Below, piece by piece: positions 5,026-23,715 of a stretch of DNA of 32,000 nucleotides. The DNA comes from Halogeometricum borinquense DSM 11551 (GTDB taxonomy: Archaea; Halobacteriota; Halobacteria; Halobacteriales; Haloferacaceae). How positions within the stretch are numbered: the stretch's first letter is position 1; each line of letters opens with the position of its first letter. The stretch lies in contig NC_014729.1 of assembly GCF_000172995.2 (NCBI RefSeq), forward strand, positions 630,001-662,000, read 5' to 3'. The notes under the pieces were generated by a model that made no database searches, was not told the origin of the DNA, and worked only from the letters and a program-made list of their open reading frames with translations. The position numbers and the translations under genes were made by a program.

Positions 5026-5097
5026 ACTCGTATCGGACGGCGGACGATACTGAATCTTACCGGCTTCAGTTCGTTACGGTGACTCGTCTCGGGAACT

Positions 5098-5675: not shown

Positions 5676-5870
5676 TAGGCTTGCACGGTACTGAACCACC
5701 AGAAACACATCTGATTCGGTAACTCCAATTCAAGGTGGTTATCCGAGCCAAACCTGATCACACACATATAAGATAAACTACATATCTTCGGGAGACAAAT
5801 GTTCGGGTGTAGTGATGAACATCACTGATAACCGAAGCCGAACGAACGGCTCGTCCAAGGTGTCGAACTG

Positions 5871-6278: not shown

Positions 6279-6314
6279 CCCACGTCAGAACCACCCTACT
6301 CCACCCATCATACG

Positions 6315-6662: not shown

Positions 6663-6670
6663 CTCACACG

Positions 6671-7078: not shown

Positions 7079-7154
7079 TAATGTAAGAATTTGTCTTGAA
7101 AAGACGTGACACGCTCACCTAAGATACGGCGGGTTTTTCTGGACGAACTGAATC

Positions 7155-8096
7155 TTATTCTGTCCGACTATGGGGGGCCGTGAAGTCAATATCCGGGCCG
7201 ACTGGCACGAATCCGGTCGGGTTGATATCCGTATGACTCCGGTAGTAGTGCTTCTTGATGTGGTCGAGAGTAACCGTCTCTGAGACGCCGTCGTGTTGGT
7301 AAATGTCGCGCGTGTACCCCCAAAGGTTGGGATAGTCGACGAGTCGTCGGATGTTACATTTGAAGTGCGTGTAGTAGACGGGGTCGAATCGGACCAGCGC
7401 GGGGAACAGTCGGAGATCGGCGATGGTGAGCGAGTCCCCGACGAGGAAGCGCTGGTCACCGAGCACGCCCTCCCAATGGTTGAGGGCGTCGAACATGGTC
7501 TCGACTGCTCTCTCGTAGGTGTCCTGCGACTCCGCGAAGCCGGCGGTATACGCGCCTTGGAGGATCGGTTCGTGCAGCTTTTCGACGACCGCGTCGATGC
7601 GGTCACGCTTGCCCGCCGGATAGAGGTCGTACTCGTCGCTGTGGTCAGCGAACGCCGTCGCGAGCATCTGCATGATCTCGATGGACTCGTTGTTGACGAT
7701 CGTCCCGTTCTCACGATCCCAGAGGACTGGCGTGGTGACGCCGCCAGAATACTCCGGATCGGCTGCTGTGTAGACTTCGTGGAGGAAGTCCGAATCGTGG
7801 ATGGAATCCGGCGTACAGCCGGGTTTGTCAGGGGTGAACTGCCAGCCACCGGCCCCACGGTAGGGGTCGACGATGTCCAGTGAGATGACGTCCTCAAGCC
7901 CGAGCAGTTTCCGGACGAGGGCAGCTCCGTGTGCCCATGGACAGGCGCGGGCGATGTACAGGTGATAGCGCCCCGACTCCGGGGGATATCGAGAGTCCGG
8001 GGAGATCCGCTCCCGGAACCCATCGTCACTTCGATTCTGGTCGTTCTCGGTCAATTCGTCAGTCGTCTTCCAGTGGCCGTCGATGAGGCGTCCCAT
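7155..8096 (-). CDS. Xi-class glutathione S-transferase / glutathionyl-hydroquinone reductase (YqjG/ECM4-like)
   Basis: Starting at Met144 of ORF 7155..8525 (MGRLIDGHW...) gives 313 aa with the Cys-Pro-Trp-Ala catalytic motif (YIARACPWAHG) and TTPVLWD. The upstream 143 codons are Ser/Thr/Arg-rich artefact. ATG checked at 8096-8094. Confidence 0.85.
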   Translation of the reverse strand: MGRLIDGHWKTTDELTENDQNRSDDGFRERISPDSRYPPESGRYHLYIARACPWAHGAALVRKLLGLEDVISLDIVDPYRGAGGWQFTPDKPGCTPDSIHDSDFLHEVYTAADPEYSGGVTTPVLWDRENGTIVNNESIEIMQMLATAFADHSDEYDLYPAGKRDRIDAVVEKLHEPILQGAYTAGFAESQDTYERAVETMFDALNHWEGVLGDQRFLVGDSLTIADLRLFPALVRFDPVYYTHFKCNIRRLVDYPNLWGYTRDIYQHDGVSETVTLDHIKKHYYRSHTDINPTGFVPVGPDIDFTAPHSRTE

Positions 8097-9299: not shown

Positions 9300-9719
9300 T
9301 CAAGCGGCAGTTTCCGTGAACTCGATACGGTCCTCATAGACGGTTATATCCAGACCCACAGCACCATCCGGTTGGCCTTGGTTGCCCGGTACATCCCACA
9401 CATACTCGTCAGAATTGTCATCTTTCAGCTCCACAGATATGAGATGTTCCCCAGGCTCCTCAATGACCCCTTCAATAGTAGTGACCCGGTTGGCAAGCTC
9501 TTCGTCATAATCGACAGAAACCGACTCGGAATAGACCTCTGCATCTGATGCGACGTTCGTAATGGTTAGTTGGACTGTGATTGGGCTCGTCGTTTGATTC
9601 ACCAGTAAAACCGTCGGAGTTCTGGAATTATTAGATAGACATCCAGCAAGAACAGGGATGGAAAGAGCACCAATCACATGAATCACACGCCGCCTCCGAA
9701 TTTTATCACGTCTTCCCAT
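9300..9719 (-). CDS. lipoprotein, hypothetical
   Basis: MGRRDKIRRRRVIHVIGALSIPVLAGC: arginine-rich n-region, hydrophobic core and a lipobox (LAGC). The mature part is rich in beta-strand-type sequence. Last gene of a three-gene minus-strand cluster. Confidence 0.65.
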   Translation of the reverse strand: MGRRDKIRRRRVIHVIGALSIPVLAGCLSNNSRTPTVLLVNQTTSPITVQLTITNVASDAEVYSESVSVDYDEELANRVTTIEGVIEEPGEHLISVELKDDNSDEYVWDVPGNQGQPDGAVGLDITVYEDRIEFTETAA

Positions 9720-9755
9720 AGGTAAAAATGTGTGGGGAATTATATATACCTTTTG

Positions 9756-10376
9756 TCAAAACAGGTCTGAATGATTGTCCATATAGTCTCGAATAGGCGT
9801 GATGTCACAATCCGAGAATCGGTTTTTTCGAGTCCTGAAGGTATGGTCATTCCCGTTACAGGTCGTGGAACTGGGGTTACCCATTACAGTAAACTCTGCG
9901 ACGCCCCAGTTTTCGTGATCGGAGTGTCTTGCAGAGTACATGTGTCCCATCTCATGAGTGTCAGCCGCAGCTATGAGAGTCCCAGTTGTAGCAATGGCGA
10001 CTGGCTGAGGATTATTGCCAGCAGCGATTTCGTCACTGTCGCCATCAGTGGGTGGTATAGGTGCCATCCCTGTGACGTTGTCATTCCATTTTTCATCATG
10101 GATGACCAGTATGGAATCATATTTACTCGAGAAGGAATAGTTGTTGTGGACATACTCAGCAGCCTCTTGACGGGCCGTACCTGCATCGTCACTCGAAATT
10201 GAGACTGGTTTATCCCAATGAGTGTGAGTTCTCAATGAATAGTCTCCGCTGGAATCCTCAATGTCTGTCTCCCATGCGTTGGAAATGGCGTCGGCCCGGT
10301 TGTTCAACAGTGACGAACTCTCGTTCTGCTTGAACTGATGGGTTGGCAGGATCGCCGCGACAGTGGAAATACTCAT
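9756..10376 (-). CDS. metzincin-like zinc metalloprotease (HExxHxxxxxH), no signal peptide
   Basis: HEMGHMYSARH has the H-E-x-x-H-x5-H spacing of metzincins, with a candidate Met-turn FTVMG 12 residues later. The start ATG (10376-10374) overlaps the upstream stop (TAATG). Confidence 0.6.
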   Translation of the reverse strand: MSISTVAAILPTHQFKQNESSSLLNNRADAISNAWETDIEDSSGDYSLRTHTHWDKPVSISSDDAGTARQEAAEYVHNNYSFSSKYDSILVIHDEKWNDNVTGMAPIPPTDGDSDEIAAGNNPQPVAIATTGTLIAAADTHEMGHMYSARHSDHENWGVAEFTVMGNPSSTTCNGNDHTFRTRKNRFSDCDITPIRDYMDNHSDLF

Positions 10377-11128
10377 TATTCTACCCTCACGAGGTATGCA
10401 TTTCTGTTCTTGTGAATTTCAACAGACATTTTGTCGAATCTTGCACTTCCTTCAACTTGTGACGTAGATTTCTGGACCTTATTGATTAGCCGTGTCGATT
10501 CCTCAGTGATTGGTATGAGAATTCCTTCAGAACTGGAGTAGACCTTACAGTTCCCATGGTAGCTGATTTCGTAATTGACGGTTGCCTCCCCAGAAGGTAC
10601 CTTATGGGTGACTTCCAGTTGTTCAGTGGAGTGTGGCGTTAGTTCAACAGACCGGTTACCAATCGAGACAGTTTTCTTCCCACCACCTACAACTGAAATC
10701 GGGACTGGAGGTGACCGGCTAATTGACGCGCCGGAACCGGCCGCGCTGCCGTCAACGTACGTTCTCGATAGGCTGACCTCATCACTCTTTGTGGTCTTGA
10801 TTCCATCAGGCGTCGACACGATCGTCGATTGAGGTGAGAGATCAGCTGCCAGATTCGACTCAGTAGTGTACACATGAGCCTTATTTTTCGACTTAGGGAA
10901 TGTGATGTGATGCGAGGGCCAAGCGATACTTTGACTCACCACCTGCTCCTTCGCGGTCACACCCACACTTTCCACAGACACCTCAACGAGTGGTGCCTGA
11001 GACTTGCTAATCTTCGTCTCTGCGGCCTTCGCTTCTACGCTGCCTAGCAATCCTACCGCTGCTATACCTGAGGTGCCAGCGAGGACTTGCCTTCGGCTAA
11101 ATTTTGTCTTTCTATTTTCCATCCGCAT
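10376..11128 (-). CDS. Tat-secreted protein, hypothetical
   Basis: Twin-arginine motif FSRRQVLAGTSGIAAVGLLGSVEAKA, followed by a Ser/Thr/Val-rich beta-type sequence. The stop overlaps the start of the metalloprotease-like gene by 1 nt. Confidence 0.7.
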   Translation of the reverse strand: MRMENRKTKFSRRQVLAGTSGIAAVGLLGSVEAKAAETKISKSQAPLVEVSVESVGVTAKEQVVSQSIAWPSHHITFPKSKNKAHVYTTESNLAADLSPQSTIVSTPDGIKTTKSDEVSLSRTYVDGSAAGSGASISRSPPVPISVVGGGKKTVSIGNRSVELTPHSTEQLEVTHKVPSGEATVNYEISYHGNCKVYSSSEGILIPITEESTRLINKVQKSTSQVEGSARFDKMSVEIHKNRNAYLVRVE

Positions 11129-11147
11129 CTCAAAACATGGTGCCTGG

Positions 11148-11157
11148 TTTATATTTC
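11148..11157 (-). promoter_or_regulatory. TATA-like box (minus strand GAAATATAAA) for the 11128 operon
   Basis: TATAAA lies about 20-25 nt upstream of ATG 11128, and about 27 nt from the second in-frame ATG at 11122. This spacing fits a leaderless haloarchaeal transcript. Confidence 0.3.
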
Positions 11158-11342
11158 TTTTTGATTGTCATTATCTCGTTAGTGGCCCCGACTAGGACCC
11201 ACCATTCAACTGGTTGTCACGTTCGTTGGTCGTCATAGTATTGCGCAAATTGTATGAACTGCTCGTGGATACTCGCGTGGCTTCCTACCCATCGATCCTG
11301 GAAGTCATCAATGTCTTAATAGTTTGAAACCACATCCCGATG

Positions 11343-12143
11343 GGCACTGTCTAGTTAGTGACCTCCTCAACCGGCGTTCGTCCGTTGAGCGCTTGATGCA
11401 GTCTCTAAAAATCATAGTATTGCGCAAATTGTATGATCCACCCGTGGACGCTTCCGTGACTGCCCACCCACGAATTATGGAAGCGCTCAACTCGCATTTT
11501 AAGGATATGAAACCACTTTTCGATGAGGTTTCGCTCGACGTAGTCAAGCAGACCGCTCAATCCTAATCGAGAGAGGGCAGTCTGATGGCCGTAGCCATCA
11601 ACCAGAAACACAGTATCTGAGAGATCATGTTTCTCGGAAAGTCGATGGAGAAACGCAGCAGCTGGATCGGTACCATGTCGTCCAAACAATTCGACATCGA
11701 GAATCAGCTTCGTCTCGATGTCTATTGCAGCGTACAACCAAGACCATTCGCCATTGATTTTGACAGCGGTCTCGTCGACCGCAACCCGCTTCGGCTTCGC
11801 CTCAGGCGGGGTGTGACCGCTGTCAGCCAGTCGATGTACCCACTGCCAAAAAGCTTGATGAGAGCGTTCAACGCCGAGTATTCGAAGAATTTCTTTTGTC
11901 TCTCTAAGTGAACACCCGGTCGCGTGGAGCTGGACGGCGAACACCCTGACGGGCGTCCTCAGAACGCTTCGCGTTCTGATGGGCTGCACGAGAGCTCTGC
12001 TCTCGTGAACGTCGCCGTCCGCTCACGCTCCCAAGTTTCTTCTAAATCCGTCGCAAAGCATTCGCTGAGCAGGTCTGCGAGCATCTTCCCAAACTCACTC
12101 AACGACCTGCTCGTTCCTCAAACTGGCTTAACTAGACAGTGCC
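11343..12143 (-). mobile_element. IS6-family insertion sequence, 801 bp, with 15/16-bp terminal inverted repeats
   Basis: IRL ggcactgtctagttag (11343-11358). IRR ttaactagacagtgcc (12128-12143). Flanked by TCCCGATG (11335-11342) and TCTCGATG (12144-12151), an 8-bp target duplication with one mismatch. Encodes an IS6-type DDE transposase (DETAVKINGEWSWLYAAID). Confidence 0.85.
11351..12084 (-). pseudogene. IS6-family transposase, apparently disrupted (N-terminal frameshift + premature TAG)
   Basis: ATG 12084 opens MLADLLSECFATDLEETWERERT..., which is in a different frame from the main ORF (11405..11989, GTG start). In-frame TAG at 11405-11407 is followed by RLHQALNGRTPVEEVTN and the stop at 11351-11353 inside the IR, which is the usual IS6 C-terminus. 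Confidence 0.65.
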
Positions 12144-12650
12144 TCTCGATGAGATTTCGCTCAACGTAGTCAAGCTGATCGCTCTATTCTAATCGATAGA
12201 TATTAGTCTGGTAGTCGTAGCCATCAACAAGAAACACAGAGTCAGAGAACTCCTGTTCTTCCGAGAGTCGATGGAGAAATGCAGCAACCGAATCAGTATC
12301 ATGTCGTCCAAACAATTCGACGTCGAGAATCAGCTTTTTCAGTGTCTACTGTATTCGCTACCCAAGGCCACCCGACATGATTTTGACAGCGGTCTCGTTA
12401 GCAACAACCCGCTTTGGCTTCGCCTCAGGCAGTTGTGATCGCCGCCAGCGCCAATGTACCTAGCGCCAAACTGCCTGATGAGAGCGTTCAACTCCGAGGG
12501 GGCGGACAATTTGTATTGTTTCTCTAACTGAAATTCGGTCGCGTGAAACTGGACGGCAAACGTCCAAACGAATGTTGTTGCCCACCCCACACTCCAGATC
12601 TTCTAATAAACCCGCCGCAAAGCACTGCCTGAGAGATCTGCGAGCGCCAT
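12144..12650 (-). pseudogene. transposase remnant of the older IS6 copy
   Basis: Homologous to the inner copy, but with multiple stops and indels. The only open piece is 12339..12590, ...TFAVQFHATEF... versus VRVFAVQLHATGC. Its 3' part continues at 11199-11342 (...DRWVGSHASIHEQFIQFAQYYDDQRT). Confidence 0.65.
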
Positions 12651-12739
12651 GATCAATTTAATCAATGACCTACTCATTTCTCAAACTGGCTAACTAGACA
12701 GTGCCTGAAATTTCAAAATATTTGGGGCCTGACATCCCC

Positions 12740-13573
12740 CTATGTGGTGATCCGACAAATAATATCGCCAGAGATTGTACATTTGAGAACAAGTTCTCGT
12801 GAATAGGAACAACAGGATTCAACAATTTTTTCAGACACTTCAACTGCTTCACCAGATCTCGGGCATTGAGGAACGAATGGCCGCAGAGAGATTAGAAGCT
12901 GCCCCTTTTGGTCCTTAGGAATATCATTCCACATGGGGAGAAGCCTCTCAAGAACTGAAGCTCCAGTTAGATCTGCGAGCATCGCCGATTCAGAGATCCA
13001 GTGTGCTATGACTGTGTCTCCAGTGGTGACATACACGGTCCCCCCAGTGTTGGAAACCTGATATTCCCCTTCAACGATTGGATATAGCTTCCTTAGAAGT
13101 TCACTGGACAACTCGTTCGTATTCGAAAGGGTATCGCGCCACAATTGCTCTGCCTCCGCGGTCAAACACAGGTCAGCAGAATCACTACAAGGCTCAACGA
13201 CATCATGCTCCGTTAAAAGGTCTTCAAAACTCGCAGATGGAGAGCCCATAGTTCCACCACTTCTCGCAGTCGAGTCATCGGATACGATAGCTCCACTGTG
13301 GAAGCGCCTGAGAAATGATGTTGGGAGATATTTCTTCGTGAGTCCAGGGGTTTTGGGGACTAAATATCCTTTCTGCCAGACCCTGGCCGCACCGAGAACC
13401 GCAAACAAGATCGCAATCAACGGACCGACAAACCAAAGTACAGCCGAGATTGTGATCGTAATGGAAATATTGAGTAGAGTACAGGGAGTACAGCGGTTTT
13501 TCCCAGTATATTCGGGGTCTTTTATTGATTCGAGGTGTTCATTCAAGGTATAGAAACATATGGTAGGAAACAT
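12740..13573 (-). CDS. membrane protein, hypothetical (N-terminal CxxC + two TM helices, Cys-rich C-terminus)
   Basis: 277-aa ORF. NRCTPCTLLNISITITISAVLWFVGPLIAILFAVLGAA forms a hydrophobic hairpin. The soluble domain ends in CPRSG...CCSYS...C...C. No family recognised. Confidence 0.6.
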   Translation of the reverse strand: MFPTICFYTLNEHLESIKDPEYTGKNRCTPCTLLNISITITISAVLWFVGPLIAILFAVLGAARVWQKGYLVPKTPGLTKKYLPTSFLRRFHSGAIVSDDSTARSGGTMGSPSASFEDLLTEHDVVEPCSDSADLCLTAEAEQLWRDTLSNTNELSSELLRKLYPIVEGEYQVSNTGGTVYVTTGDTVIAHWISESAMLADLTGASVLERLLPMWNDIPKDQKGQLLISLRPFVPQCPRSGEAVEVSEKIVESCCSYSRELVLKCTISGDIICRITT

Positions 13574-13698
13574 AAAAAACTACTGTTCAAAGTGTGTTTT
13601 TCCATCCACAGTTTCACGTTTGACTTAGAATCGTGAGCAAGCCCTCAGCTACCGATGTTGACCACTAAGACAGCACGCATCCAGTAGAACAGTCGCTC

Positions 13699-13951
13699 GT
13701 GGTCGTAGAATTGGGGTAGAAATGGACCACTGTGACTCACTCCGCTCGTCACAAGCACCCACTCACCCCGTTCGCGGGAACGGCTCAGATTCGAACTTCC
13801 CTCGCTATCGCTCGGGCGTTCGAATCTTCACCGGGTGAAATCTCCACCACCTCTCGGACCACTCGCTGTCGCTCGTGGTCTGTGAGAGGTGGGGAGAATA
13901 TGGGCCGACTCAGTGTTGATATTGGGAAGAGACGCTCTTCCCACTAGTTTT
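13699..13951 (+). other. cluster of consecutive inverted repeats / stem-loops in a 610-bp gene-free stretch (possible structured RNA or protein-binding array)
   Basis: Read directly. 13699-13704/13725-13730 (6 bp). 13731-13736/13748-13753 (6 bp). cccgTTCGcggg at 13767-13778. 13787-13796/13818-13827 (perfect 10 bp, AGATTCGAAC/GTTCGAATCT). Palindrome TTCACCgGGTGAA at 13827-13839. Composite hairpin 13841-13897 with about 20 bp. GGGAAGAGacgCTCTTCCC at 13924-13942, followed by TTTT at 13948-13951. Confidence 0.5.
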
Positions 13952-13999
13952 CACGGATCCAGATGGAAACTAGCTCCTCGGCAAATCGCCAGATGGGAA

Positions 14000-14018
14000 G
14001 AGGATTTCAACAGAGCCG
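14000..14018 (+). repeat. GAGGATTTCAACAGAGCCG, copy 1 of an exact 19-bp direct repeat
   Basis: Identical to 14164..14182. Spacing is 164 bp. Confidence 0.8.
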
Positions 14019-14163
14019 AATTGGCATAAGAACTCATCCGTGGTTCCAACTGTTGAATGCCAGTTATATCTGCGGCAAAATCACTGCTGACGCCCCCATA
14101 CCGACTAACTCACAGCTGCTTAATAGGCGCTCTATATTCAGCACACAGTTTGTATCAACTACT

Positions 14164-14182
14164 GAGGATTTCAACAGAGCCG
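14164..14182 (+). repeat. GAGGATTTCAACAGAGCCG, copy 2 of an exact 19-bp direct repeat
   Basis: Identical to 14000..14018. It ends one base before the stop codon (14184-14186) of the minus-strand 79-aa ORF. Confidence 0.8.
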
Positions 14183-14183
14183 T

Positions 14184-14423
14184 TCACCACTGTTCGAACA
14201 ATTCGTCGATATCGTTCAACCGAGGACGACTCAGGATTCGTTCGTAGCCTTCGAGTGCCATTTCGTAGTGGACGTGAGGGAAGTAATCGAAGATCTCGTA
14301 CTGGGTCTTCCCGTCGTCCTGTGTGACGAATAATCGGTCTTCAGGACTAGTGTTGTTGTAGAGTGTTTCTGCCTCTATGTATGCGGCTTTGAGCTGTTGG
14401 TACTCCCTTTCGTGAATGGGCAT
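14184..14423 (-). CDS. small acidic hypothetical protein (79 aa)
   Basis: ORF with plausible acidic composition (MPIHEREYQQLKAAYIEAETLY...DELFEQW). Its first 49 nt overlap the end of the start-less ORF 14375..14785. Confidence 0.5.
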   Translation of the reverse strand: MPIHEREYQQLKAAYIEAETLYNNTSPEDRLFVTQDDGKTQYEIFDYFPHVHYEMALEGYERILSRPRLNDIDELFEQW

Positions 14424-14793
14424 ATCTGCGTCTGAAATCGGTGGTTCTCACCTCTCGTCCTCGTTTCGTCGGGTTTGTAGTTTTGACTCCTTTCAAGCTC
14501 GGGTTCGTAGAACGGGGTTAGCTCTTTGTCAAGTAGTTCTCCGCCGTCAGGATAGGGTTCATCCGTTTCAATATCGGTTCTGTACGCGATTGCCTTCTGA
14601 AGTTGTTCTTGGGAGAAGTAGCCCCATTCCCAACGGTCGTAGGTATTCGGAGATTTAACTCGGCCAAAGTACAGACCATCTTCTTTGATATCGTATGCCT
14701 CCCACCACCAATCCGGTAGTAAGAGAACTGCCCATGCCGCTAACGGCTCCTTATACTCATCTTCGTCTTCATATTCTGAAATAAATCATTCAT
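14375..14793 (-). pseudogene. 136-codon coding-like frame with no in-frame ATG/GTG/TTG; probable 5'-frameshifted gene
   Basis: The minus-strand frame is open from 14785 to TAG 14377-14375. It reads FISEYEDEDEYKEPLAAWAVLLLPDWWWEAYDIKEDGLYFGRVKSPNTYDRWEWGYFSQEQLQKAIAYRTDIETDEPYPDGGELLDKELTPFYEPELERSQNYKPDE... I checked every codon and found no canonical start. The nearest ATG (14793-14791, MNDLFQN...) is in another frame and stops after 17 codons. Confidence 0.4.
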
Positions 14794-14907: not shown

Positions 14908-15252
14908 ATGACTGAGGACCATCATCCCCTGAGAGGGGTAATCTTGTACTGGACCCTCGGCCAACAGCCTCAACAGAAGTTGAAGGACCGAATGTTTTCC
15001 GGCAACTACAGCCACTACTCAACTAAAGACGGTGAATTCACCGACACAAGTAGGTTGAAAACAGGAGAGTACCTGATTATCGAAATCAGCGAAGAACAGT
15101 TAGAGGCGTCCAATGAACCGGTAGAATCCGAATGCCCTGAACTCGAAACCCTCCCAGGAAGCGAGCTCGAACAGTTCTGTCTCTACCGAGAAGAAGACGG
15201 ATACTGTACAACACTCGGGGAAACCTGCGTCCTCTTAGAACCCGATGACTGA
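14908..15252 (+). CDS. hypothetical acidic protein (114 aa) with C-terminal Cys cluster
   Basis: ORF preceded by an AT-rich intergenic region. The stop overlaps the next gene by 8 nt (15245-15252), suggesting an operon. No family recognised. Confidence 0.55.
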   Translation: MTEDHHPLRGVILYWTLGQQPQQKLKDRMFSGNYSHYSTKDGEFTDTSRLKTGEYLIIEISEEQLEASNEPVESECPELETLPGSELEQFCLYREEDGYCTTLGETCVLLEPDD

Positions 15253-15658
15253 AGCACTCGAAAACCTCCGTGAGAAAGACCAGGTTGTACTCAACCAGAT
15301 AGACCAGGGTAACGACGACGTCCAGAAAATCACCGAAGCCACCACTCTAGAAAACTACCACGTCACCTACGCCTTCGAAAAACTCGAAGATCTCGGGCTT
15401 CTAAAGGTTTCAAAACCTGAAGGCACCGTCGAACGGATAATCAACGGTCAAAAACGAGTCTTCCAACATCCCAAACAAGCCGCTCTCACCGAGAAAGGAA
15501 GACAACACCTCGAACAATTAGAGACAGACGGCTTTGACGAGTATGAAAACCTAAGCCACCGAGAACTCGTGAAAAAAACCCACCAACTCGAAGCCGATAT
15601 CAGACAGCTAGAAAACTCGCTCAATACCTTCAGACAGCAAGTCGTGGAAAAACTATAG
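15245..15658 (+). CDS. winged-helix DNA-binding protein with C-terminal coiled coil
   Basis: DQVVLNQIDQGNDDVQKITEATTLENYHVTYAFEKLEDLGLLKV fits an HTH plus wing of the MarR/TrmB-like type. The C-terminus (HRELVKKTHQLEADIRQLENSLNTFRQQVVEKL) is heptad-like. Confidence 0.6.
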   Translation: MTEALENLREKDQVVLNQIDQGNDDVQKITEATTLENYHVTYAFEKLEDLGLLKVSKPEGTVERIINGQKRVFQHPKQAALTEKGRQHLEQLETDGFDEYENLSHRELVKKTHQLEADIRQLENSLNTFRQQVVEKL

Positions 15659-15661
15659 GGA

Positions 15662-16111
15662 TTAAACGTCGGTCTGGTATGGCTCCTCTTTAGCTCTCTG
15701 TACGTCCTCATCCTTCTCAATCTCGGAGCCTGTACGTCCCTTATTCCTCGACGCAACGTTTCTCATCGCATTTTGTTTCTCGTCGAACCCGTCCTTGAGT
15801 TTTGAGAGTCCTTTTGACAACCCCTGAACAAACCTCTCTCCCTTCCCGGTAATCCGGAAACGATGGGGCTCCCTGTCCTCGTCAACATCAGCCATCTCCA
15901 AGTCCTCATACGACTGCATCCTACTCGAAAAACCGGGGTCGAGTGGACCGTGCTCTTCCCTTCTGAACGACCAATCATCAGAGTCAGATTTCGAGTTTCG
16001 GTACTGGTATAGCGACTTGTGAAACTTCAACCGTCCTTCAATCTCGCCGTCGAACTCGGATAGCATCATCAACCGTGTATGTAACTCTTCGTCTCCAATT
16101 TCTTCCTTCAT
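15662..16111 (-). CDS. small acidic protein, winged-helix-like (pattern reminiscent of DUF4065/Panacea-SocA); fourth gene of the candidate defence operon
   Basis: 149 aa. GRLKFHKSLYQY...WSFRREEHGPLDPGFSSRMQSYEDLEMADV...HRFRITGKGERFV. The start ATG overlaps the stop of the upstream ATPase gene (ATGA at 16108-16111). Confidence 0.6.
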   Translation of the reverse strand: MKEEIGDEELHTRLMMLSEFDGEIEGRLKFHKSLYQYRNSKSDSDDWSFRREEHGPLDPGFSSRMQSYEDLEMADVDEDREPHRFRITGKGERFVQGLSKGLSKLKDGFDEKQNAMRNVASRNKGRTGSEIEKDEDVQRAKEEPYQTDV

Positions 16112-17817
16112 AGGAAGTCACCTAATTTGGTTTGAAGCGGTTCCCGTTCCAAGATCTCCACTTGATCAAACCGGGAGTCAATCGAGGTATTAGAGGTGGT
16201 TACAATCATCTGCTTGTCCAAAGATAGAATATACTCTAGGGCTGCATCTCTGTTCTCTTCCTCCTGAAGGTTCGAAAACGGCTCATCTAAAACAATAGTA
16301 TCCCACTCGATAACACCGTTTTCAGTTGCAAAACGACTCAGGGTACAAGCAAAGGATATATTCAGTAGGTGAAATTCCGAGCCACTCAGATTACCTCCTC
16401 TATCATACTCGCGCAGGTTGTTCCTACCAGGGAATTGAATTCGACCCTCCTCGGAAATACTGATTCCAAGCTGCAGGTTTGAATTCATCTGGTTGTACGC
16501 TTCTTCCCAAGCCTCACTGAACTCCTGAATACCAGCCTCAAAGCTTTGTTCAGTCAGTTCTTCGACCATCTCAGAGGCATGGTTATGTGCTTCAGAATAT
16601 GCCTTAGACTTCCGGTTGATCTCCTCAACCTTCTCCTCTAGACTTTGTCGGTCAGATTTGAGTTCGTCCAAACTGCTAGAAATAGATTCTAACTCTTCTT
16701 GGACGTGGTCCTGAATCTGCTGGATATTGTGGTCATAGTTGTCCAGCCTTCGTTTGGTGAATCCGTCTAACTCTTCGAGCTCGGGTTTTTCCTCTTTTAG
16801 TTCGCCAATCTGGTTAGAGACTTCGTCCCGCTGGTCTTGCAGTTCTTCAATCTCTTCTTTCAGCTCATCAAGCAGATCATCGGACTCCTCGATTTTCTGG
16901 CTAAGACGCTGCTTCAATCCTTCCAGAGAGTGGTTCCGACCACAGTAAGGACAGTAACCGCGTTGAATCCTGTTCTTTGCTTTCTCAGTTGTAATCCTGC
17001 GGTCACAGGTCGGACAGACAAAATCATTGACAGCCTCAGCAATAATATCGTTAACCTCGGACTCGTAGTTCTCCTGTTTCCTCTTCTTCCGATGCAGTTT
17101 TCGAAGACGCTTACGCAAACCCTCCTTTTCCTTGAATAACTCATCAAGCCTGTTCTCCAGTTCTTCATCTCTCCTCAACTGTTGGCTGAGCTTAGCCAGT
17201 TCACCTGATTCAATCTGTGACTCAAGTCGGTCGTACTTCTCTTTCTGTGACTCTAAATCACTGACCTGTCGGTCAAGATCGGACTTCTCCTCAGAGAGCC
17301 GTCTTTTCGTATCCTTCGTCTCTACAACGAGTTCGCTTAGTTGTTCCTCGGCATCTTCCAGCCGGGAAATCCTCTGCTCCAGCTCTCGGTTGGTAACGCT
17401 CCGAATCAGTTTGGTTCTTTGACCTCGACTCAACTCGTCCAAAGGCATCTTACCAATATGAGAGTGGACAAAAAGAGATTTCAGCAGAGTAGTATCCCCG
17501 AGGTCCTCGGAGAAGGCTTCAGAAGCATTCGAGCCATCCAGTGTTTCATCTTCTCGTTCGTACTCTGATTCTGGGTTGCCTCGGAAGAATCGGCTGTCGT
17601 TCGTGAATTCGAGTTCAACCTCGTTTTGTCGACCGGTCGCTAAATCGATAGTGTGCTTTGCTCCAAGAAGATTGTAGAGAATAGCGTTGAAAGTCAGTGT
17701 TTTCCCGGTTCGGCTTCCTCCCCTGAGCAGATGAGAATCACTGCTTACTGATTCGATTTCCATGCCTCGGTGCTCGCCGCTAGCGAACTCTTCGATGTTC
17801 AGGGAGTCAATCTTCAT
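16108..17817 (-). CDS. SMC/Rad50-like ABC ATPase with a mid-coiled-coil 4-Cys zinc hook
   Basis: Walker A RGGSRTGKT (aa 32-40, nt 17698-17721). About 230 aa of heptad-rich, charged sequence lie on each side of CPTC-x17-CPYC (aa 268-292, nt 16942-17016). ABC signature LSGSE (aa 477-481). Walker B/D-loop TIVLDEPFSNL (aa 507-517). Confidence 0.8.
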   Translation of the reverse strand: MKIDSLNIEEFASGEHRGMEIESVSSDSHLLRGGSRTGKTLTFNAILYNLLGAKHTIDLATGRQNEVELEFTNDSRFFRGNPESEYEREDETLDGSNASEAFSEDLGDTTLLKSLFVHSHIGKMPLDELSRGQRTKLIRSVTNRELEQRISRLEDAEEQLSELVVETKDTKRRLSEEKSDLDRQVSDLESQKEKYDRLESQIESGELAKLSQQLRRDEELENRLDELFKEKEGLRKRLRKLHRKKRKQENYESEVNDIIAEAVNDFVCPTCDRRITTEKAKNRIQRGYCPYCGRNHSLEGLKQRLSQKIEESDDLLDELKEEIEELQDQRDEVSNQIGELKEEKPELEELDGFTKRRLDNYDHNIQQIQDHVQEELESISSSLDELKSDRQSLEEKVEEINRKSKAYSEAHNHASEMVEELTEQSFEAGIQEFSEAWEEAYNQMNSNLQLGISISEEGRIQFPGRNNLREYDRGGNLSGSEFHLLNISFACTLSRFATENGVIEWDTIVLDEPFSNLQEEENRDAALEYILSLDKQMIVTTSNTSIDSRFDQVEILEREPLQTKLGDFL

Positions 17818-18322
17818 CGGTTATGTCGTACAATTTTACTGAGCTTTTAACTACCTGTCGGAGATTCCGATATTCCCGATAACTGAATAAGTAAATCACG
17901 ACCAGCGATCCAATCAACGAAAAAACGGCATACGTCAAGCCATACAAATCATTCACGGCAAATGGCAGAGAAACCCCGATCAACAGACCAGAAAGAACCG
18001 TTACCAAGTGGCGGTGTGCTTTGCCATCCATTCGATCTATACGGTCCTGAGTATCCTGATCAGCATCCCAGTAGAACTCATCATCTCCCGTTCGTCCATC
18101 GATGCGGTTGAAACTCTCCTCAATAACATCACCCGCGAAAAACTCCATCAAACCATCATTGAAAACCACGCTAAGGAAAACCAGGAAAACAGAAGGAACA
18201 CCAGCAGCAAAAAGGTGAACAGGCTTGCTCAATTCGAAAGACGACAAGTAGAGAAAACCAGCGGCATATATGAATAGAAACAGAGCACCCCAACTCTGCT
18301 GAATCTGCTTACCAAGCTGCAT
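17807..18322 (-). CDS. four-TM membrane protein with acidic central loop
   Basis: 171 aa. Hydrophobic helices WGALFLFIYAAGFLYLSSF, LFAAGVPSVFLVFLSVVF, LVTVLSGLLIGVSLPFAV and TYAVFSLIGSLVVIYLFSY. Loop: DGRTGDDEFYWDADQDTQDRIDRMDG. The stop overlaps the ATPase start by 11 nt. Confidence 0.7.
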   Translation of the reverse strand: MQLGKQIQQSWGALFLFIYAAGFLYLSSFELSKPVHLFAAGVPSVFLVFLSVVFNDGLMEFFAGDVIEESFNRIDGRTGDDEFYWDADQDTQDRIDRMDGKAHRHLVTVLSGLLIGVSLPFAVNDLYGLTYAVFSLIGSLVVIYLFSYREYRNLRQVVKSSVKLYDITDED

Positions 18323-18401
18323 AAAACAACTATCAACATCAAAGAGTTAGATAACTTTCCCTCCACCGGAGTGAATCTGACACTTCGACAGTTAGTATAA
18401 T

Positions 18402-21400
18402 TCAGTCCCAAGCGTGGAAGTCGCTTTCAATCTCCCCAGTGAATTCTCCATCTTCATTAAGTGAATAGACACCTCTGATCTGGCTCTTACCGAACTCATT
18501 GCCGCTAATAGTTCCTGTAGATATTCTTTTCTCGCCTTGCACAAGCCATACTATGGACAAACCTGTTTGAGTTAGTTCCTGTAGGAGGTTGCTATCTCCT
18601 CCGATCATTGTCAATGAATTCACCCTGTCGAGCAGTCCATCTGACTCAGAAACGTCGGCAATCCGAACTGGGTTTGTTGACTGGTTCATGAACATCTTTT
18701 CACCAACAACCCATTCCATTTCAAGTAGTTCCGAGAGATATGGTGATGGCACGAACATTCCATACGATTCGTCTATCGAGCAGTCATACTCGGCTTCCCA
18801 ATGGAGGTCGATTATTGTTTTTTCGGTGTCAACAGGAGATCCTCTGATAGCTTGACCGGCGTCCTCTAACCAATCATCAACAACTGGGTGCCATGGGTAC
18901 TCCCCTCTGAAGACCTGAGTCAGAGTGGCTAACCGAACTAACCCACTTTGAATACTATCGCTCGAAACCCAGTTCTGTCTAACCCATGCCAGCAATTCTG
19001 ATTTGTCTTCTGCATCTACGATAACGGAATCTATCCAGAAGACAATCTTCCGCTCGGCATCAGACTCCTGACTCTCTTTTTCTCCCCAATTGTATGTTCC
19101 ATGCAGCGGTAACCATGATTCCTCATCGATAGATATTTCCAACAAATTGGGTATCTCAGGAAACTCTTGGTCATCTGAGACCCACCCTTCAGTTCCTACA
19201 TCACCAATACGAAGACTGTAATTCGGGACTTGATCAATAGACAGATCAGATTCTGGTTCAGGATTTAGTACAGAGGGGTCTATGTTTCTATCCCAGTTTG
19301 TCCAGGGACCACTATAGGGGGTATCCGTTATTGAGTCGGTGAACTCGCAATCATCCGTTATCCAAGCGACGAACTCGTAGTAAGCAATCCACTGGTACTT
19401 TTTACTGAATTTCTCGGGTTTCCGAGTCCCCCTTCCTGCTCGCAACCTCCAGTTCACGCACTGGTCGAATTCACCAAACGAATCTGGATGCCAACCAAGG
19501 TCAAACACTCTTTTCGTAATCCATCTAAGAGCCTCGTCACCAGAGATGTCATAACCGTGTACATGAGTGCTGTCACTATTCGTTCCAACAACGTACCGAG
19601 CAAAATCACTGAAACCGCCTCCCTCAAAGTCAGATCCCACTAAACCAATCCAAAACTTGGATTCAAGATCTGTATCTGCATCTTCCAACCGTTCTGTTAC
19701 CTGATCTCGTAACTCATCCGGACTTGGAATACCGATACTGAACGAGCTGTCATACGGCGGTCTAATCTTATCAAGGTCTACACTGTAGGTATCAGACTTG
19801 TCGTTTGCCAGTTCAATGATTCCCCTAGCATAGTCTCTTGTCAGGATATGTGGCGTTGGATCACCATCCTCAAACTCCAGTTCAAATACAGTGTCAGCAA
19901 TGTCTGTTACCGAGTTCTCCGTTCTGTTTCGGAGAACCCCACCGTAGGCTGCTGCATAAACTCTCTCCAAAATGTATGGATCGTTCACACCTCGGAAGCG
20001 TTCAATCAAGTCAATATAGATCTCAAGGTCGGAACCTACGACATTGACTATCGCCTTGGTAGATCTATCCCGTAGAAATCTGTTGGGGCAGCAAAGGAAC
20101 CAAGATAAGGTAACCGAGATCAACCGCTTCAATTCGATTGACTCAATTGGATTGTTCTCCAGAGAGAAACCCCAGTTAACCAATCGAAATACCTCGGAAG
20201 TATCTTCACCGAATTCTTCGTGCAGGAACCTAGACCAATCGTGGTCTCTTCCACGAACACCATATTCCATCAGGATGCCGTGGAGATATTCTGTGTTTAA
20301 TGGATGCTCTGAACTCGTTGCTAACGTAAGGAGAACCCGCCAGAGTTCATATAGTTCATCTAATTCCCCGATTTCGCTCCAAAGATAATCCGTGACTTCT
20401 TGACTAATATCGCCATTCGAATCGATCAGTGTTTGGGGATCTCTCCAACCCAGACTCTTAATGAACGGAATCAAAATCGCCTCTGAATCAATGAAATCGA
20501 ATATTTCGACGTTATGTTGCTCAGGAAGATGGATCGATAGCGCTTGAATCAGTCCAGAATACCGGAATGGGTCGTCAAATACCTCCTGCAACTCATCACT
20601 ATCGGATAGAGCATCCCTGAAATCACCGTCCACGTAGAGGTCGAGATACTGCTGTGCCAACATATGGTCTGCAAACTTATCATACGAGAATCTAACCGCT
20701 TCTCCTGCATCCTCATCAAACTGGACAACCTCTGAAATCACACCCTCACTCAAGATATGCCTGTATAGACTCTCTGGGTAGCGTCTTCCTGGTAGAAAGT
20801 CATTGACGATCTGCTTTGCTTTATCCTTGGGCAAGCGTTTGGTGCCGCCTCCCTCTTCAGCCATTTCACGAGCCAGCGCTTCAACAGCAGTTCTTACCTT
20901 GTTATCGCTCGGATCGTACTGTAGCTCCCGCCAGAGCCGTTCGTGGACACCATCAATATATCCTTCAAATATCTGGCTAATGCCTTCAGGACCGTGAGAA
21001 ACCCGGCTCTTTCCCTGTCTCTCCAAGTTCTCACAGAACAGCTTCAAAAACAACGGGACCTGAAACTCTTGTTTCAGAACCGGGATCGAGGAATGGTCTA
21101 TCCCGTGTGCGTCGAAGAACTTTCGAACAGCTTCGTACTCAACTTCTCTGAAGCCATAGTGTCTGGTTTCGATGAGGTCGTCCTCAGTACTTTCGAATAC
21201 TCGGTTTTCATAGCCGGTGCGGCAACTAACACAGATCCCGATATGTGGGTAGTTCTCTAACTTCCGTAGCACTCCTGGAAGCTGTCTCGACCACATCCGT
21301 GGATCAGAACTCTCATTCAAAGCGTCGATCATGATGAGAGATCGAACACCACGTGATTCTCCGAGAGAATCTAGGGCACCTAAGAACTCTTCAGTACCAC

Positions 21401-22601
21401 AAGTCAATCCAAACCGTTCGATAATCTGCGTCCAAATATTCCTGTTATAGAAGTTCTCGCCGAGCAACAATACAGTCGGGTAACCTTCCTCAATTCGGTC
21501 TTTAGCGACATTGCATAACAGGTGTGTTTTCCCCATCCCTGCTTCCCCAAGCAACTTCAAAGCAGGGTCCTGAGCTACCTGCAAATCCTTCGATTGAACA
21601 TATCTTTGAAAGCTGTATACTTCACTCTGGACTTGACGGAAACGATTCAGGGTATGTTTTTCTGTTGTACCTACTGAATCCTGTTCTTCCTCTGCCTGTT
21701 CTTTGAGAGTTCGAAGCTCCGGTTCCAGTGAACTGATCGCTTGCTCTGCCTGTTCAAGAGTATCAACTAACTCTTGAATAGGGATGTCTGTATCCACCTG
21801 TTCAATATCTTGGAGAAGGACTGGTATCTGTTCTATTGCATCGTGTAACTCATGAAAAGATTCCTCATCAGCCTGCTTCAACACCTCAATACTTCTCTGG
21901 GTGAACAAGCTACTTGCTTCCTCACTGAGAGCATCTAAACGATCTTTAACGTCCCCAACGAAAGCTGGGGTTCTCCCTAATGGCTCAAAAATATCCGATG
22001 CTTTGATATCAACGTGAAGCTCTGGTGTGTACCGCTCACTAGCATTAGAAATCGTTTCTTCTAGCTCTGACCGTAATTTGGATCCAGTTAGTTGGTTTGT
22101 GTTGAACCAGAAGTAGAGCCGACCTTTGTGCTTCTCCTTACTTAGGAGTTCTAATAGTCGGGATTGACCCCAGAAAACGAACTCCACATCCATGTCACGT
22201 TCATCCGCCCACCTTTCCCATTTCTCCTTCCGGTCATTGTACTTCTCAAGTGCGGTCTTAACCCCTTTACGCGGGCTGTGAGGTCGGTCGCATGGGACAC
22301 ATACAAAATACTTGGTTAGTCCTGGATAGGTGTCTAGTGCTTTTTTAACAGATCTGTCGACTTGTGATAGGCTGCTATTATCGATTCTATCTACGTATTT
22401 TGCTTGCCAACCCCATACATCTCCTTCCGGGGACTCCCATTTGCATTCGATTCCTGCGTCTGGGTCGCCAATACGGGTATATTTCCATGAACCAGATATG
22501 TCTTCAAATTGGTGTGCAATCTGGCTACAGAGTTCCTCGAAGCCCTTCCTGCGGGAAGTTTCAACCGGTCTAATATTGTTAAAGTTGATAGAAATGCTCA
22601 T
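18402..22601 (-). CDS. 1399-aa Mrr-like PD-(D/E)xK nuclease + NACHT/STAND-like P-loop NTPase + large C-terminal region
   Basis: N-terminus: GFEELCSQIA...IGDPDAGIECKW...WGWQAKY (helix Glu, Asp, Q-x-K). Walker A LLGEAGMGKTHLL (aa 350-362, nt 21525-21548). Walker B SLIMIDALNES (aa 421-431, nt 21312-21338), of the hhhhD[GA]LxE NACHT type. Alpha-helical repeats follow, then a Trp-rich C-terminal domain of about 450 aa (KYQWIAYYEF). Confidence 0.85.
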   Translation of the reverse strand: MSISINFNNIRPVETSRRKGFEELCSQIAHQFEDISGSWKYTRIGDPDAGIECKWESPEGDVWGWQAKYVDRIDNSSLSQVDRSVKKALDTYPGLTKYFVCVPCDRPHSPRKGVKTALEKYNDRKEKWERWADERDMDVEFVFWGQSRLLELLSKEKHKGRLYFWFNTNQLTGSKLRSELEETISNASERYTPELHVDIKASDIFEPLGRTPAFVGDVKDRLDALSEEASSLFTQRSIEVLKQADEESFHELHDAIEQIPVLLQDIEQVDTDIPIQELVDTLEQAEQAISSLEPELRTLKEQAEEEQDSVGTTEKHTLNRFRQVQSEVYSFQRYVQSKDLQVAQDPALKLLGEAGMGKTHLLCNVAKDRIEEGYPTVLLLGENFYNRNIWTQIIERFGLTCGTEEFLGALDSLGESRGVRSLIMIDALNESSDPRMWSRQLPGVLRKLENYPHIGICVSCRTGYENRVFESTEDDLIETRHYGFREVEYEAVRKFFDAHGIDHSSIPVLKQEFQVPLFLKLFCENLERQGKSRVSHGPEGISQIFEGYIDGVHERLWRELQYDPSDNKVRTAVEALAREMAEEGGGTKRLPKDKAKQIVNDFLPGRRYPESLYRHILSEGVISEVVQFDEDAGEAVRFSYDKFADHMLAQQYLDLYVDGDFRDALSDSDELQEVFDDPFRYSGLIQALSIHLPEQHNVEIFDFIDSEAILIPFIKSLGWRDPQTLIDSNGDISQEVTDYLWSEIGELDELYELWRVLLTLATSSEHPLNTEYLHGILMEYGVRGRDHDWSRFLHEEFGEDTSEVFRLVNWGFSLENNPIESIELKRLISVTLSWFLCCPNRFLRDRSTKAIVNVVGSDLEIYIDLIERFRGVNDPYILERVYAAAYGGVLRNRTENSVTDIADTVFELEFEDGDPTPHILTRDYARGIIELANDKSDTYSVDLDKIRPPYDSSFSIGIPSPDELRDQVTERLEDADTDLESKFWIGLVGSDFEGGGFSDFARYVVGTNSDSTHVHGYDISGDEALRWITKRVFDLGWHPDSFGEFDQCVNWRLRAGRGTRKPEKFSKKYQWIAYYEFVAWITDDCEFTDSITDTPYSGPWTNWDRNIDPSVLNPEPESDLSIDQVPNYSLRIGDVGTEGWVSDDQEFPEIPNLLEISIDEESWLPLHGTYNWGEKESQESDAERKIVFWIDSVIVDAEDKSELLAWVRQNWVSSDSIQSGLVRLATLTQVFRGEYPWHPVVDDWLEDAGQAIRGSPVDTEKTIIDLHWEAEYDCSIDESYGMFVPSPYLSELLEMEWVVGEKMFMNQSTNPVRIADVSESDGLLDRVNSLTMIGGDSNLLQELTQTGLSIVWLVQGEKRISTGTISGNEFGKSQIRGVYSLNEDGEFTGEIESDFHAWD

Positions 22602-22782: not shown

Positions 22783-23715
22783 TTAGAGGTGAAGTGGTTT
22801 GATGGCTTGTAGGTATTCTTGTTGTGCTTGGTTACGGTCGATGCGTGTGTAGATGTCTATGGTTTCTGACTCGGAGTCGCCTCGGATGTATTGGAGGATG
22901 TGGTCGGGCATTCCTTGGTTTCTCATGAGGGTGGTGAAGACGGTTCGGAAGGTGTGTGGTGTGAATTTTTTGTGGAACCGTGTTTCGCCTTCTTCCATGA
23001 CCCCGGTTTTAACGGCTGCCTCCCTGACTTTCCGCCGGATTCTTTCCCGTGTTAGCTGGTTTCCGGTTCGACTGGAGGCAAACAGGTATTCCGAGGTGTT
23101 CTGGTCGATGAACTGGAGGCGTTGAATCATTCTCACTGTTTCATCGTCAACGGGTATGACGGTGGTTTTGCCTCCTTTCCGGTTGGTAAGCCGAATAAAA
23201 CCGTCTTCGAGCAGTAGGTCTTCGCGTGTGATGGTGAGTGCTTCTGTGACTCGGCACCCGGTTTTAGCGAGTACTACTGCCACGGTCTTGTCCCGCGGAT
23301 CATCGATAGCGTGAACAATCTTCTCAGCGTTTTCCCATGTGGCGCAGTCAGGTCGGTCGTGGATCTGCTTAGGAACTTCTTCGAGTACGACCGCGGCAGG
23401 GTTCCCGGTGATGTCTTCGTATCGGGGTCGTTTCATTGCCCAAGCGTAGAAGCTGCTGAGTGATTCGAGGTAGCGGCGTTTGGTGTTTTGTGCCAAGTCT
23501 CGTTCTACGAGTATTCTCAGGTACTGTTCAACGTGGTGTACTTCGACGTCTTCCGGGTCAAGTTCGGGGAAGTGTTCGTGGAAGAACCGTTGAAGTGTCC
23601 GGCTGTACTCATTGATTGTCCGATGGCTTCTACCGGTCGTGGTCTTGCTTGTAAGGAACTCGTTGATCGAGTCGTGCTTGTTCTCGAACCGGGTTTTGTA
23701 CCAGTCATCACCCAT
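22783..23715 (-). CDS. tyrosine recombinase / phage-type integrase (XerC/D-like)
   Basis: 310 aa. N-terminal SAM-like core-binding part (INEYSRTLQRFF...). Catalytic region with ...GCRVTEAL..., HKKFTPHTFRTVFTTLM (HxxR) and IDIYTR (nucleophile Tyr). Confidence 0.9.
   Translation of the reverse strand: MGDDWYKTRFENKHDSINEFLTSKTTTGRSHRTINEYSRTLQRFFHEHFPELDPEDVEVHHVEQYLRILVERDLAQNTKRRYLESLSSFYAWAMKRPRYEDITGNPAAVVLEEVPKQIHDRPDCATWENAEKIVHAIDDPRDKTVAVVLAKTGCRVTEALTITREDLLLEDGFIRLTNRKGGKTTVIPVDDETVRMIQRLQFIDQNTSEYLFASSRTGNQLTRERIRRKVREAAVKTGVMEEGETRFHKKFTPHTFRTVFTTLMRNQGMPDHILQYIRGDSESETIDIYTRIDRNQAQQEYLQAIKPLHL

Follow-up and report, generated by a model that had tools for sequence, protein, structure and literature searches.

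A predicted Mrr-type Avs2 antiviral sensor carried on the remnant of a mobile element in the haloarchaeon Halogeometricum borinquense

Introduction

Avs2 is a well-characterised and widespread family of bacterial and archaeal pattern-recognition proteins, which is now structurally understood. In EcAvs2 an effector is followed by a large helical extension, a STAND ATPase and a TPR domain, with a beta-rich sensor at the C-terminus; the helical extension adjoins the bound terminase, and mutation of the contact residues E1362, E1444, E1462 and W1266 weakens defence (PMC13601566). The same study reports that most Avs2 proteins use an Mrr-like effector (PMC13601566). This is also the case for KpAvs2, for which non-specific DNA degradation and abortive infection have been described and for which the nuclease mutation K71A and the NTPase mutation K337A each abolish defence (PMC11564622). 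Here we analyse a related gene within 32,000 nucleotides of the chromosome of Halogeometricum borinquense DSM 11551 (contig NC_014729.1, positions 630,001 to 662,000; this whole stretch is called the window, and all positions refer to it), together with the three genes that follow it on the same strand (the trio).

The gene very probably encodes a canonical single-protein Mrr-type Avs2 antiviral STAND sensor, carried as cargo by the remnant of an integrase-bounded, low-GC, conjugative-type element in the H. borinquense chromosome, with the trio as a separate unit.

Results

An intact gene of the Avs2 family

The open reading frame (ORF) occupies 18402..22601 on the minus strand and runs for 1399 codons without interruption. 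A first-pass annotation, made from the letters of the DNA and a list of translated ORFs, had reported this frame and a set of motifs in it, all of which are in place: GFEELCSQIA (residues 20-29, nucleotides 22515-22544), IGDPDAGIECKW (residues 44-55), WGWQAKY (residues 63-69, 22395-22415), the Walker A motif GEAGMGKT (residues 352-359, 21525-21548), the Walker B motif LIMIDALNE (residues 422-430, 21312-21338) and KYQWIAYYEF in the C-terminal sensor (residues 1068-1077). More than 1000 homologues were found at E<=1e-5. Two assemblies of H. borinquense (contig AOHT01000032 of DSM 11551 and chromosome CP050274) encode exactly this protein; the gene is therefore real and not a chance ORF. The following parts can be distinguished.

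18402..22601, minus strand: Avs2 gene, intact (PADLOC PDLC02164 and PDLC02162; NCBIfam NF041813; PDB 9O4E)
22092..22601, minus strand: predicted Mrr-like PD-(D/E)xK nuclease effector, residues 1-170 (structure model, Foldseek, profile match to EcAvs4)
22398..22538, minus strand: putative catalytic residues E22 (22536-22538), D48 (22458-22460), E52 (22446-22448) and Q66-A67-K68 (22398-22406) (22-sequence alignment)
21582..22079, minus strand: helical extension from effector to NTPase, residues ~175-340 (alignment to EcAvs2 residues 169-~330)
20742..21581, minus strand: STAND P-loop NTPase module, residues ~341-620 (Walker motifs aligned to EcAvs2)
19566..20741, minus strand: alpha-helical TPR-like sensor region, residues ~621-1012 (collinear with the EcAvs2 TPR region)
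18402..19532, minus strand: C-terminal beta-rich sensor, residues ~1024-1399, including KYQWIAYYEF (alignment to EcAvs2 residues 1102-1482)

The family assignment draws on PADLOC, NCBIfam and solved structures. Six Avs2 models of PADLOC matched, the best of which, PDLC02164, gave E=0 and 1443 bits over residues 3-1010, while PDLC02162 (E=5.6e-262) spans residues 4-1393 of 1399; the best model for anything other than Avs2 reached E~1e-4. The NCBIfam model NF041813 (AVAST type 2 anti-phage system protein Avs2) scored 933.9 bits and the next family 19 bits, the best stretch being residues 184-1011 on model positions 1-829 of 1317. Among solved structures the only real match was chain A of 9O4E, the EcAvs2 structure solved by cryo-electron microscopy (E=1.4e-136), which aligned with residues 175-1012 (E=4e-113 for this segment) and 1024-1395. 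The C-terminal 386 residues, searched alone, matched EcAvs2 1102-1482 with E=7.9e-24, and KKYQWIAYYE(F/Y) is common to both proteins. Judged by its sequence, the protein is thus an intact member of the known Avs2 family.

Pfam on its own would leave the protein unannotated. Neither the whole protein nor its segments contained a domain above threshold, and nothing at all was found for residues 1-200 or 641-1399; matches below threshold to AAA_22, NACHT and NB-ARC were confined to the P-loop. With the NTPase segment in isolation, NACHT (PF05729; cut-off 26.7 bits) reached 17.9 bits and NB-ARC (cut-off 23.5 bits) reached 17.3 bits, again on the P-loop alone. As these matches are below threshold, the STAND assignment follows from homology to Avs2. 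The label "NACHT-like" that had been given to the NTPase is accordingly a loose one, although the P-loop does fall in the STAND family and not outside it.

The first-pass annotation had also proposed that the order of effector, NTPase and sensor follows the logic of antiviral STAND (Avs) proteins, and the matches in PADLOC, NCBIfam and 9O4E bear this out and specify Avs2. Its helical linker, NTPase, "helical repeats" and "Trp-rich domain" are the helical extension, STAND ATPase, TPR domain and C-terminal sensor of EcAvs2. The suggestion of an unusual fusion, in contrast, could not be upheld: most Avs2 proteins are reported to have an Mrr-like effector (PMC13601566) and KpAvs2 has the same layout, so the gene represents the majority Avs2 architecture and no new fusion.

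It should be noted that the GenBank annotation of DSM 11551 lists the protein (hypothetical protein C499_09072) with 1263 residues. This version starts at residue 137 of the ORF and therefore lacks the entire nuclease catalytic core (residues 1-136; 22193-22601, minus strand). Gene calls on both H. borinquense assemblies yield the full 1399 residues.

The N-terminal effector

Residues 1-~170 do not align with 9O4E, because EcAvs2 carries a different, rare effector. Sequence searches with this part of the protein gave weak matches: residues 1-200 as a single sequence found EcAvs4 in the PDB with E=0.067, a profile of 22 archaeal and bacterial Avs2 N-termini found EcAvs4 residues 5-97 with E=0.015, and the NCBIfam Avs4 model matched residues 16-160 with E=1.4e-4. 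For this reason the fold is settled by structure modelling and not by sequence comparison. An AlphaFold2 model of the N-terminal 175 residues, built from the same 22-sequence alignment, had a pLDDT of 85.9 and a pTM of 0.82. In a Foldseek search its top matches were chains of EcAvs4 (8DGF; E=7.8e-6 and 6.1e-5, TM 0.61-0.63 over 173-176 columns, TMq 0.63 for the best match), followed by the PD-(D/E)xK nucleases NucS/EndoMS, EcoO109I, SfsA and McrC. The structural check that had been recommended for the N-terminus thus returned a nuclease fold.

The alignment with 8DGF pairs the elements FE..C, GIE and GWQ(A/S)K (GWQAK here, GWQSK in EcAvs4). Invariant residues of the 22-sequence alignment include F21, E22, C25, Q27, D48, G50, E52, C53, W55 and Q66-A67-K68. 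Together with the PD-(D/E)xK matches in Foldseek, this invariance justifies the earlier choice of a helix Glu, an Asp and a QxK motif, that is, E22, D48 and Q66-x-K68, as the signature of an Mrr-type nuclease. The N-terminus is therefore predicted, from model and alignment, to be an Mrr-type PD-(D/E)xK nuclease domain with an intact active-site signature. K71 of KpAvs2, the residue changed in the nuclease mutant, is presumably the counterpart of K68.

The same N-terminal domain is present in ~105 of the 120 best Avs2 homologues (37-84% identity), among them proteins from bacteria and from Asgard that carry the name Avs2 at NCBI. In the haloarchaeal homologues the effector is either the conserved Mrr domain or has been replaced outright by an HNH domain, and this swapping occurs among proteins that are 62-69% identical.

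NTPase, sensor and the nature of the trigger

Both Walker motifs are intact and align with GKAGIGKS and LVFIDAINE of EcAvs2. The helical extension aligns with EcAvs2 residues 169-~330, and the TPR-like region is collinear with the EcAvs2 TPR region up to residue 994 and lies within NF041813 model positions 1-829. A comparison of six haloarchaeal homologues shows the NTPase to be the best conserved part (72-81% identity), and the helical extension (43-61%; residues 176-340, 21582-22076) and the C-terminal sensor (49-56%; residues 1151-1399, 18405-19151) to be clearly the most divergent. Such divergence of the two segments is as expected if they form virus-facing surfaces. Two of the contact residues of EcAvs2, E1362 and E1444, are matched by the same amino acid in the present protein, whose residue at the position of E1462 is Gln, a conservative exchange; W1266 lies in an indel. 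This mapping assumes that the numbering of the PDB entry equals that of the publication (PMC13601566).

These data bear on the question whether the haloarchaeal protein responds to the large terminase at all. It might be an Avs2 protein with a different trigger, such as another halovirus protein or a protein of a non-tailed halovirus or plasmid, as KpAvs2 recognises several unrelated phage proteins, e.g. Ksap1 (PMC11564622). The C-terminal sensor is distant from that of EcAvs2, with many indels and without the contact residue W1266, and divergence among the haloarchaeal homologues is fastest in this sensor and in the helical extension. However, the Avs2 sensor type has been reported to be clade-specific (PMC13581612), and recognition of the terminase ATPase depends on its shape and charge and extends to terminases that have diverged widely (PMC13601566). 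The equivalents of E1362 and E1444 are conserved. Furthermore, tailed haloviruses encode canonical large terminases. A trigger other than the large terminase is thus regarded as unlikely.

A decayed mobile island

The gene lies in a region of ~8-23 kb in which the GC content is 46-53%, compared with 56-64% in the flanks. A tyrosine integrase gene (22783-23715) and a small overlapping ORF are situated directly upstream of it. Homologues of the protein adjoin genes for type IV secretion systems (T4SS), ArdC, ParA and integrases; they thus sit on mobile elements and not at core positions of the genome. No tRNA gene and no att direct repeats were found around the island (6-26 kb), the sole duplications being related to insertion sequences (IS) at 11.2-12.7 kb, so the ends of the island are set by GC content and the integrase alone.

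Intact relatives of the island are present in Halorubrum (locus L016) and Halobaculum (L018). In both of them the trio is followed, in convergent orientation, by a winged-helix-like 137-residue gene, a TraG/TrwB-like coupling protein (640-646 residues), a VirB4/AAA_10-like ATPase and a TrbC/VirB2-like pilin, and the T4SS-like cluster headed by the coupling protein is intact (L016 10176-17186, L018 10159-17129). Of these genes the window retains only the 137-residue one, plus a 114-residue ORF (14908-15252) whose similarity is limited to the C-terminal end of the coupling protein, of which L016 has an intact copy (region 14908-15658, plus strand). Only short overlapping ORFs are found at 13.6-14.9 kb. 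An IS240-type DDE transposase gene (11405-11989) is accompanied by a degenerate second copy ~620 nucleotides away (region 11233-12706), with direct-repeat blocks that are 74-89% identical; these copies are the result of IS insertion and decay inside the island. The coupling-protein remnant and the IS copies, compared with the intact clusters of L016 and L018, show the island to be a decayed integrative element of the conjugative type.

In a decaying element the Avs2 gene could itself be a non-functional relic, given that the TraG-like gene has been reduced to a C-terminal fragment, that the 13.6-14.9 kb interval is left with short overlapping ORFs and that IS copies have accumulated at 11.2-12.7 kb. 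However, the decay has not extended to the Avs2 gene: its 4.2-kb frame is unbroken and aligns collinearly with homologues of full length, no catalytic or nucleotide-binding residue has been lost, and independent assemblies of H. borinquense give the same sequence. It is therefore very improbable that the gene is a relic.

At the far end of the island (9300-11128, minus strand) three consecutive low-GC genes are located, which are unrelated to Avs2. They encode proteins of 250 residues with a twin-arginine-like signal (RRQVLAG), of 206 residues with a zincin-like HEMGH motif, and of 139 residues with lipoprotein-like character.

The downstream trio

Three genes follow the Avs2 gene.

17807-18322, minus strand: trio gene 1, 171 residues, apparent protein with four transmembrane segments (read by eye)
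16108-17817, minus strand: trio gene 2, 569 residues, Rad50/SMC-like ABC ATPase with a zinc-hook-like motif
15662-16111, minus strand: trio gene 3, 149 residues

The first of them starts 79 nucleotides past the Avs2 stop, and the trio genes overlap by 11 and 4 nucleotides. The 569-residue protein contains a Walker A motif (GGSRTGKT), a coiled coil with CPTC...CPYC, the signature LSGSE and a Walker B motif (VLDEP); it matches LmuB, Rad50 and ASRP models, all partially, the best of the LmuB matches having E=1.5e-24 (mainly residues 285-547). The 171- and 149-residue proteins matched no Pfam family and no PADLOC model at E<=0.01. An AlphaFold2 model of the latter, based on 24 homologues, was poor (pLDDT 46.6), and one UniRef name labels a homologue of it as "PadR-like".

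In a scan of GTDB representative genomes the 569-residue protein was found in 19 further haloarchaeal loci; the 149-residue gene lies beside it in 19 of 19 and the 171-residue gene in 14, with identities down to ~27-30% (tblastn). Seventeen of these 19 loci have no Avs2 gene within 8 kb, and the two exceptions have Avs2 genes of the HNH type: in Halorubrum sp. DTA46 (L016) Avs2 precedes the trio as in the window, with a similar gap (~76-80 nucleotides), and in Natrialba taiwanensis (L034) it follows the trio. Around the trio of 15 more distant loci lies a mixture of integrases, DEAD/Hachiman-like helicases and ordinary metabolic genes, with no STAND or NACHT protein among the top-listed flank families; adjacency of trio and STAND genes is therefore confined to one element lineage.

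Several further features of the trio loci were observed. Halorubrum sp. DTA46 has two copies of the trio, and one copy is located on a plasmid of Natrinema. In Halorussus halobius (L017) a different NACHT protein of 1500 residues (10256-14758, plus strand; Pfam NACHT E=1.2e-8, weak Avs1b match) lies after the trio, which has integrases on both sides (two). In Halobaculum saliterrae (L018) an AAA+ ATPase (PF00004) and a DUF6414 gene (4817-7419, plus strand) occupy the slot between integrase and trio, which is the place of Avs2 in the window; they are a possible, uncharacterised defence pair.

Avs2 and the trio as separate units

According to the first-pass annotation, the Avs2 gene is the first of a four-gene operon. 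Three genes on the same strand do follow, but they form an autonomous cassette with its own upstream element. The element, GGRAAAGTTATCTAAC..TTTG (18340-18361, minus strand), is conserved within ~40 nucleotides upstream of the first trio gene. Its core, GTTATCTAAC, is palindromic and occupies positions -33 to -24 relative to the ATG of the 171-residue gene (18346-18355, minus strand). The element is kept in six of six close loci, whether the preceding gene is Avs2-Mrr, Avs2-HNH, DUF6414 or another. Judged against the general features of haloarchaeal promoters, the element fits a candidate archaeal promoter (BRE/TATA, i.e. transcription factor B recognition element and TATA box) of a leaderless transcript, or an operator. 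In a scan for bacterial-type promoters and terminators, in which archaeal promoters were not modelled, counts were at or below shuffle expectation.

Conversely, the trio is absent beside Avs2 in four of six other haloarchaeal loci, the Avs2 homologues of which are 62-68% identical. Two of these lie in a Natrialbaceae genome (L004) and in another genome (L005), one context comprises metagenomic plasmid-like contigs with ArdC and ParA genes (L006-8), and the fourth is in Halococcus (L009), where Avs2 adjoins TraC-like and TrbL genes. Additionally, the trio of L016 is 88-90% identical to that of the window, compared with 67% for its Avs2, which has another effector; Avs2 and the trio therefore have separate histories.

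This evidence also bears on two proposals that would link the genes more tightly. The first is that Avs2 and the trio are one four-gene defence system, with the trio as accessory or second effector in the manner of Avap1 and Avap2 for KpAvs2. The genes share the strand and are separated by just 79 nucleotides that contain no terminator-like site (bacterial-type scan), the order and a similar gap recur in L016, Avs2 follows the trio in L034 and a NACHT protein does so in L017. Accessory-dependent Avs2 operons have a precedent (PMC11564622), and the SMC-like protein matches LmuB defence models (E=1.5e-24). However, the four Avs2 contexts and the 17 of 19 trio loci in which the partner is missing, the 15 distant loci without STAND or NACHT among the top-listed flank families, the retention of the -33 to -24 motif regardless of the gene upstream, the unequal identities in L016 and the AAA+/DUF6414 pair in the Avs2 slot of L018 are at variance with a common system. 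Moreover, none of the trio proteins matches Avap1 (radical SAM) or Avap2 (DUF6375). A four-gene system is thus improbable. The second proposal sees in the trio an uncharacterised module of integrative/conjugative elements that cooperates with neighbouring STAND sensors (Avs2-Mrr, Avs2-HNH or NACHT), either as a second arm that senses DNA or acts on membranes, or as a regulator that shields the element's transfer DNA from Avs2. We regard this as quite improbable; if it were true, the trio and a STAND sensor would constitute a new composite archaeal system of defence or element maintenance. We conclude that Avs2 is the occupant of a variable cargo slot beside a backbone cassette.

Discussion

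Proposed mode of action

The following scheme is derived, in all its steps, from homology to EcAvs2, KpAvs2, Avs3 and Avs4 (PMC13601566, PMC11564622). In the uninfected cell Avs2 would be present as a latent monomer. Once a tailed halovirus has infected the cell, the helical extension would act together with the TPR region and the C-terminal beta-rich sensor to bind the ATPase domain of the large terminase, or possibly another viral trigger. Binding would permit ATP-dependent tetramerisation via the STAND module, which would unite and activate the four N-terminal Mrr-like PD-(D/E)xK domains, and these would degrade double-stranded DNA non-specifically, so that the infection would be aborted and the cell lost. 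The downstream trio, as a cassette from the same mobile-element lineage with a putative promoter of its own, would be dispensable for this mechanism. Trigger recognition is the least certain step, because KpAvs2 senses proteins other than terminases as well. The location on a mobile island agrees with a role in antiviral defence, of which it is no proof.

Several points weigh against the proposed assignment of a stand-alone, terminase-sensing Avs2. The score of 933.9 bits narrowly missed the equivalog cut-off of NF041813 (1000 bits), which is due to the divergence of the C-terminal sensor. Two of the four mapped EcAvs2 terminase-contact residues are not conserved, and archaeal Avs2 proteins, this one included, are not known to have been tied to a trigger by experiment. 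KpAvs2 demonstrates that an Avs2 can answer to proteins other than terminases and may depend on accessory proteins (PMC11564622). With respect to the trio, no terminator-like site was found between the Avs2 gene and trio gene 1 (bacterial-type scan only), so read-through transcription from Avs2 into the trio is possible. Of the 20 trio loci, three have Avs2 as a neighbour and a fourth has a different NACHT protein; this adjacency exceeds the expectation for unrelated genes and makes some functional cooperation conceivable.

The gene adds a clean and intact haloarchaeal example of the commonest (Mrr) Avs2 architecture and would already be labelled by standard tools for defence annotation. It is of modest practical value, as a test case for which a tractable haloarchaeal host and its viruses offer an archaeal high-salt setting. 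Two questions could be addressed with it: whether Avs2 also senses terminases in archaea, at high salt, and how the swapping of Mrr and HNH effectors and the divergence of the sensor track the diversity of haloviruses. The trio, and the T4SS-like elements of haloarchaea in which it is found, are the less understood items of the locus.

Comparison with known systems

A preprint survey of haloarchaeal defence systems (10.1101/2025.11.08.687337) makes no mention of Avs or Halogeometricum.

KpAvs2 of Klebsiella pneumoniae (Bechon et al. 2024, PMC11564622) shares with the haloarchaeal protein an Mrr-family endonuclease, a helical bundle, a STAND NTPase and an Avs2-type C-terminal sensor. Its nuclease lysine K71 is in a very similar position to K68, the presumed counterpart, and the same is true of its Walker A lysine K337 and K358. 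Unlike the protein described here, which has a haloarchaeal host, KpAvs2 depends on Avap2 (DUF6375), and with some phages Avap1 (radical SAM) is required as well; neither family is represented at this locus. An Avap operon of the KpAvs2 type was considered and rejected, as PF04055 and PF19902 match neither the three downstream proteins nor an upstream protein of 163 residues.

EcAvs2 (9O4E; PMC13601566) has the helical extension, NTPase, TPR region, C-terminal sensor, Walker motifs and KYQWIAYYE(F/Y) in common with the protein, but it differs in its rare, uncharacterised N-terminal effector and in two of its four mapped terminase-contact residues, which are not conserved here. With EcAvs4 (8DGF) the similarity is the reverse: its N-terminal Mrr-like nuclease is the best structural match and the best, albeit weak, sequence match, but its NTPase and portal-binding sensor do not match, and the score of the whole-protein Avs4 model is negligible.

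For the trio alone, Lamassu is the nearest known system, as the 569-residue Rad50/SMC-like ABC ATPase with its coiled coil matches LmuB. In contrast to Lamassu, this ATPase has a zinc-hook-like CxxC...CxxC motif and the cassette adjoins T4SS-like genes in intact elements. A Lamassu identity was rejected, as the 171- and 149-residue proteins match no LmuA or LmuC model.

Among the proteins compared here, the HNH-type Avs2 proteins of the haloarchaea Natrialba taiwanensis, Halococcus sp. AFM35 and Halorubrum sp. DTA46 are 62-69% identical to the H. borinquense protein from residue 170 to the end, and two of them are found in the same element context. They differ from it in the effector, which is an HNH_2 endonuclease domain in place of the predicted Mrr-like nuclease.

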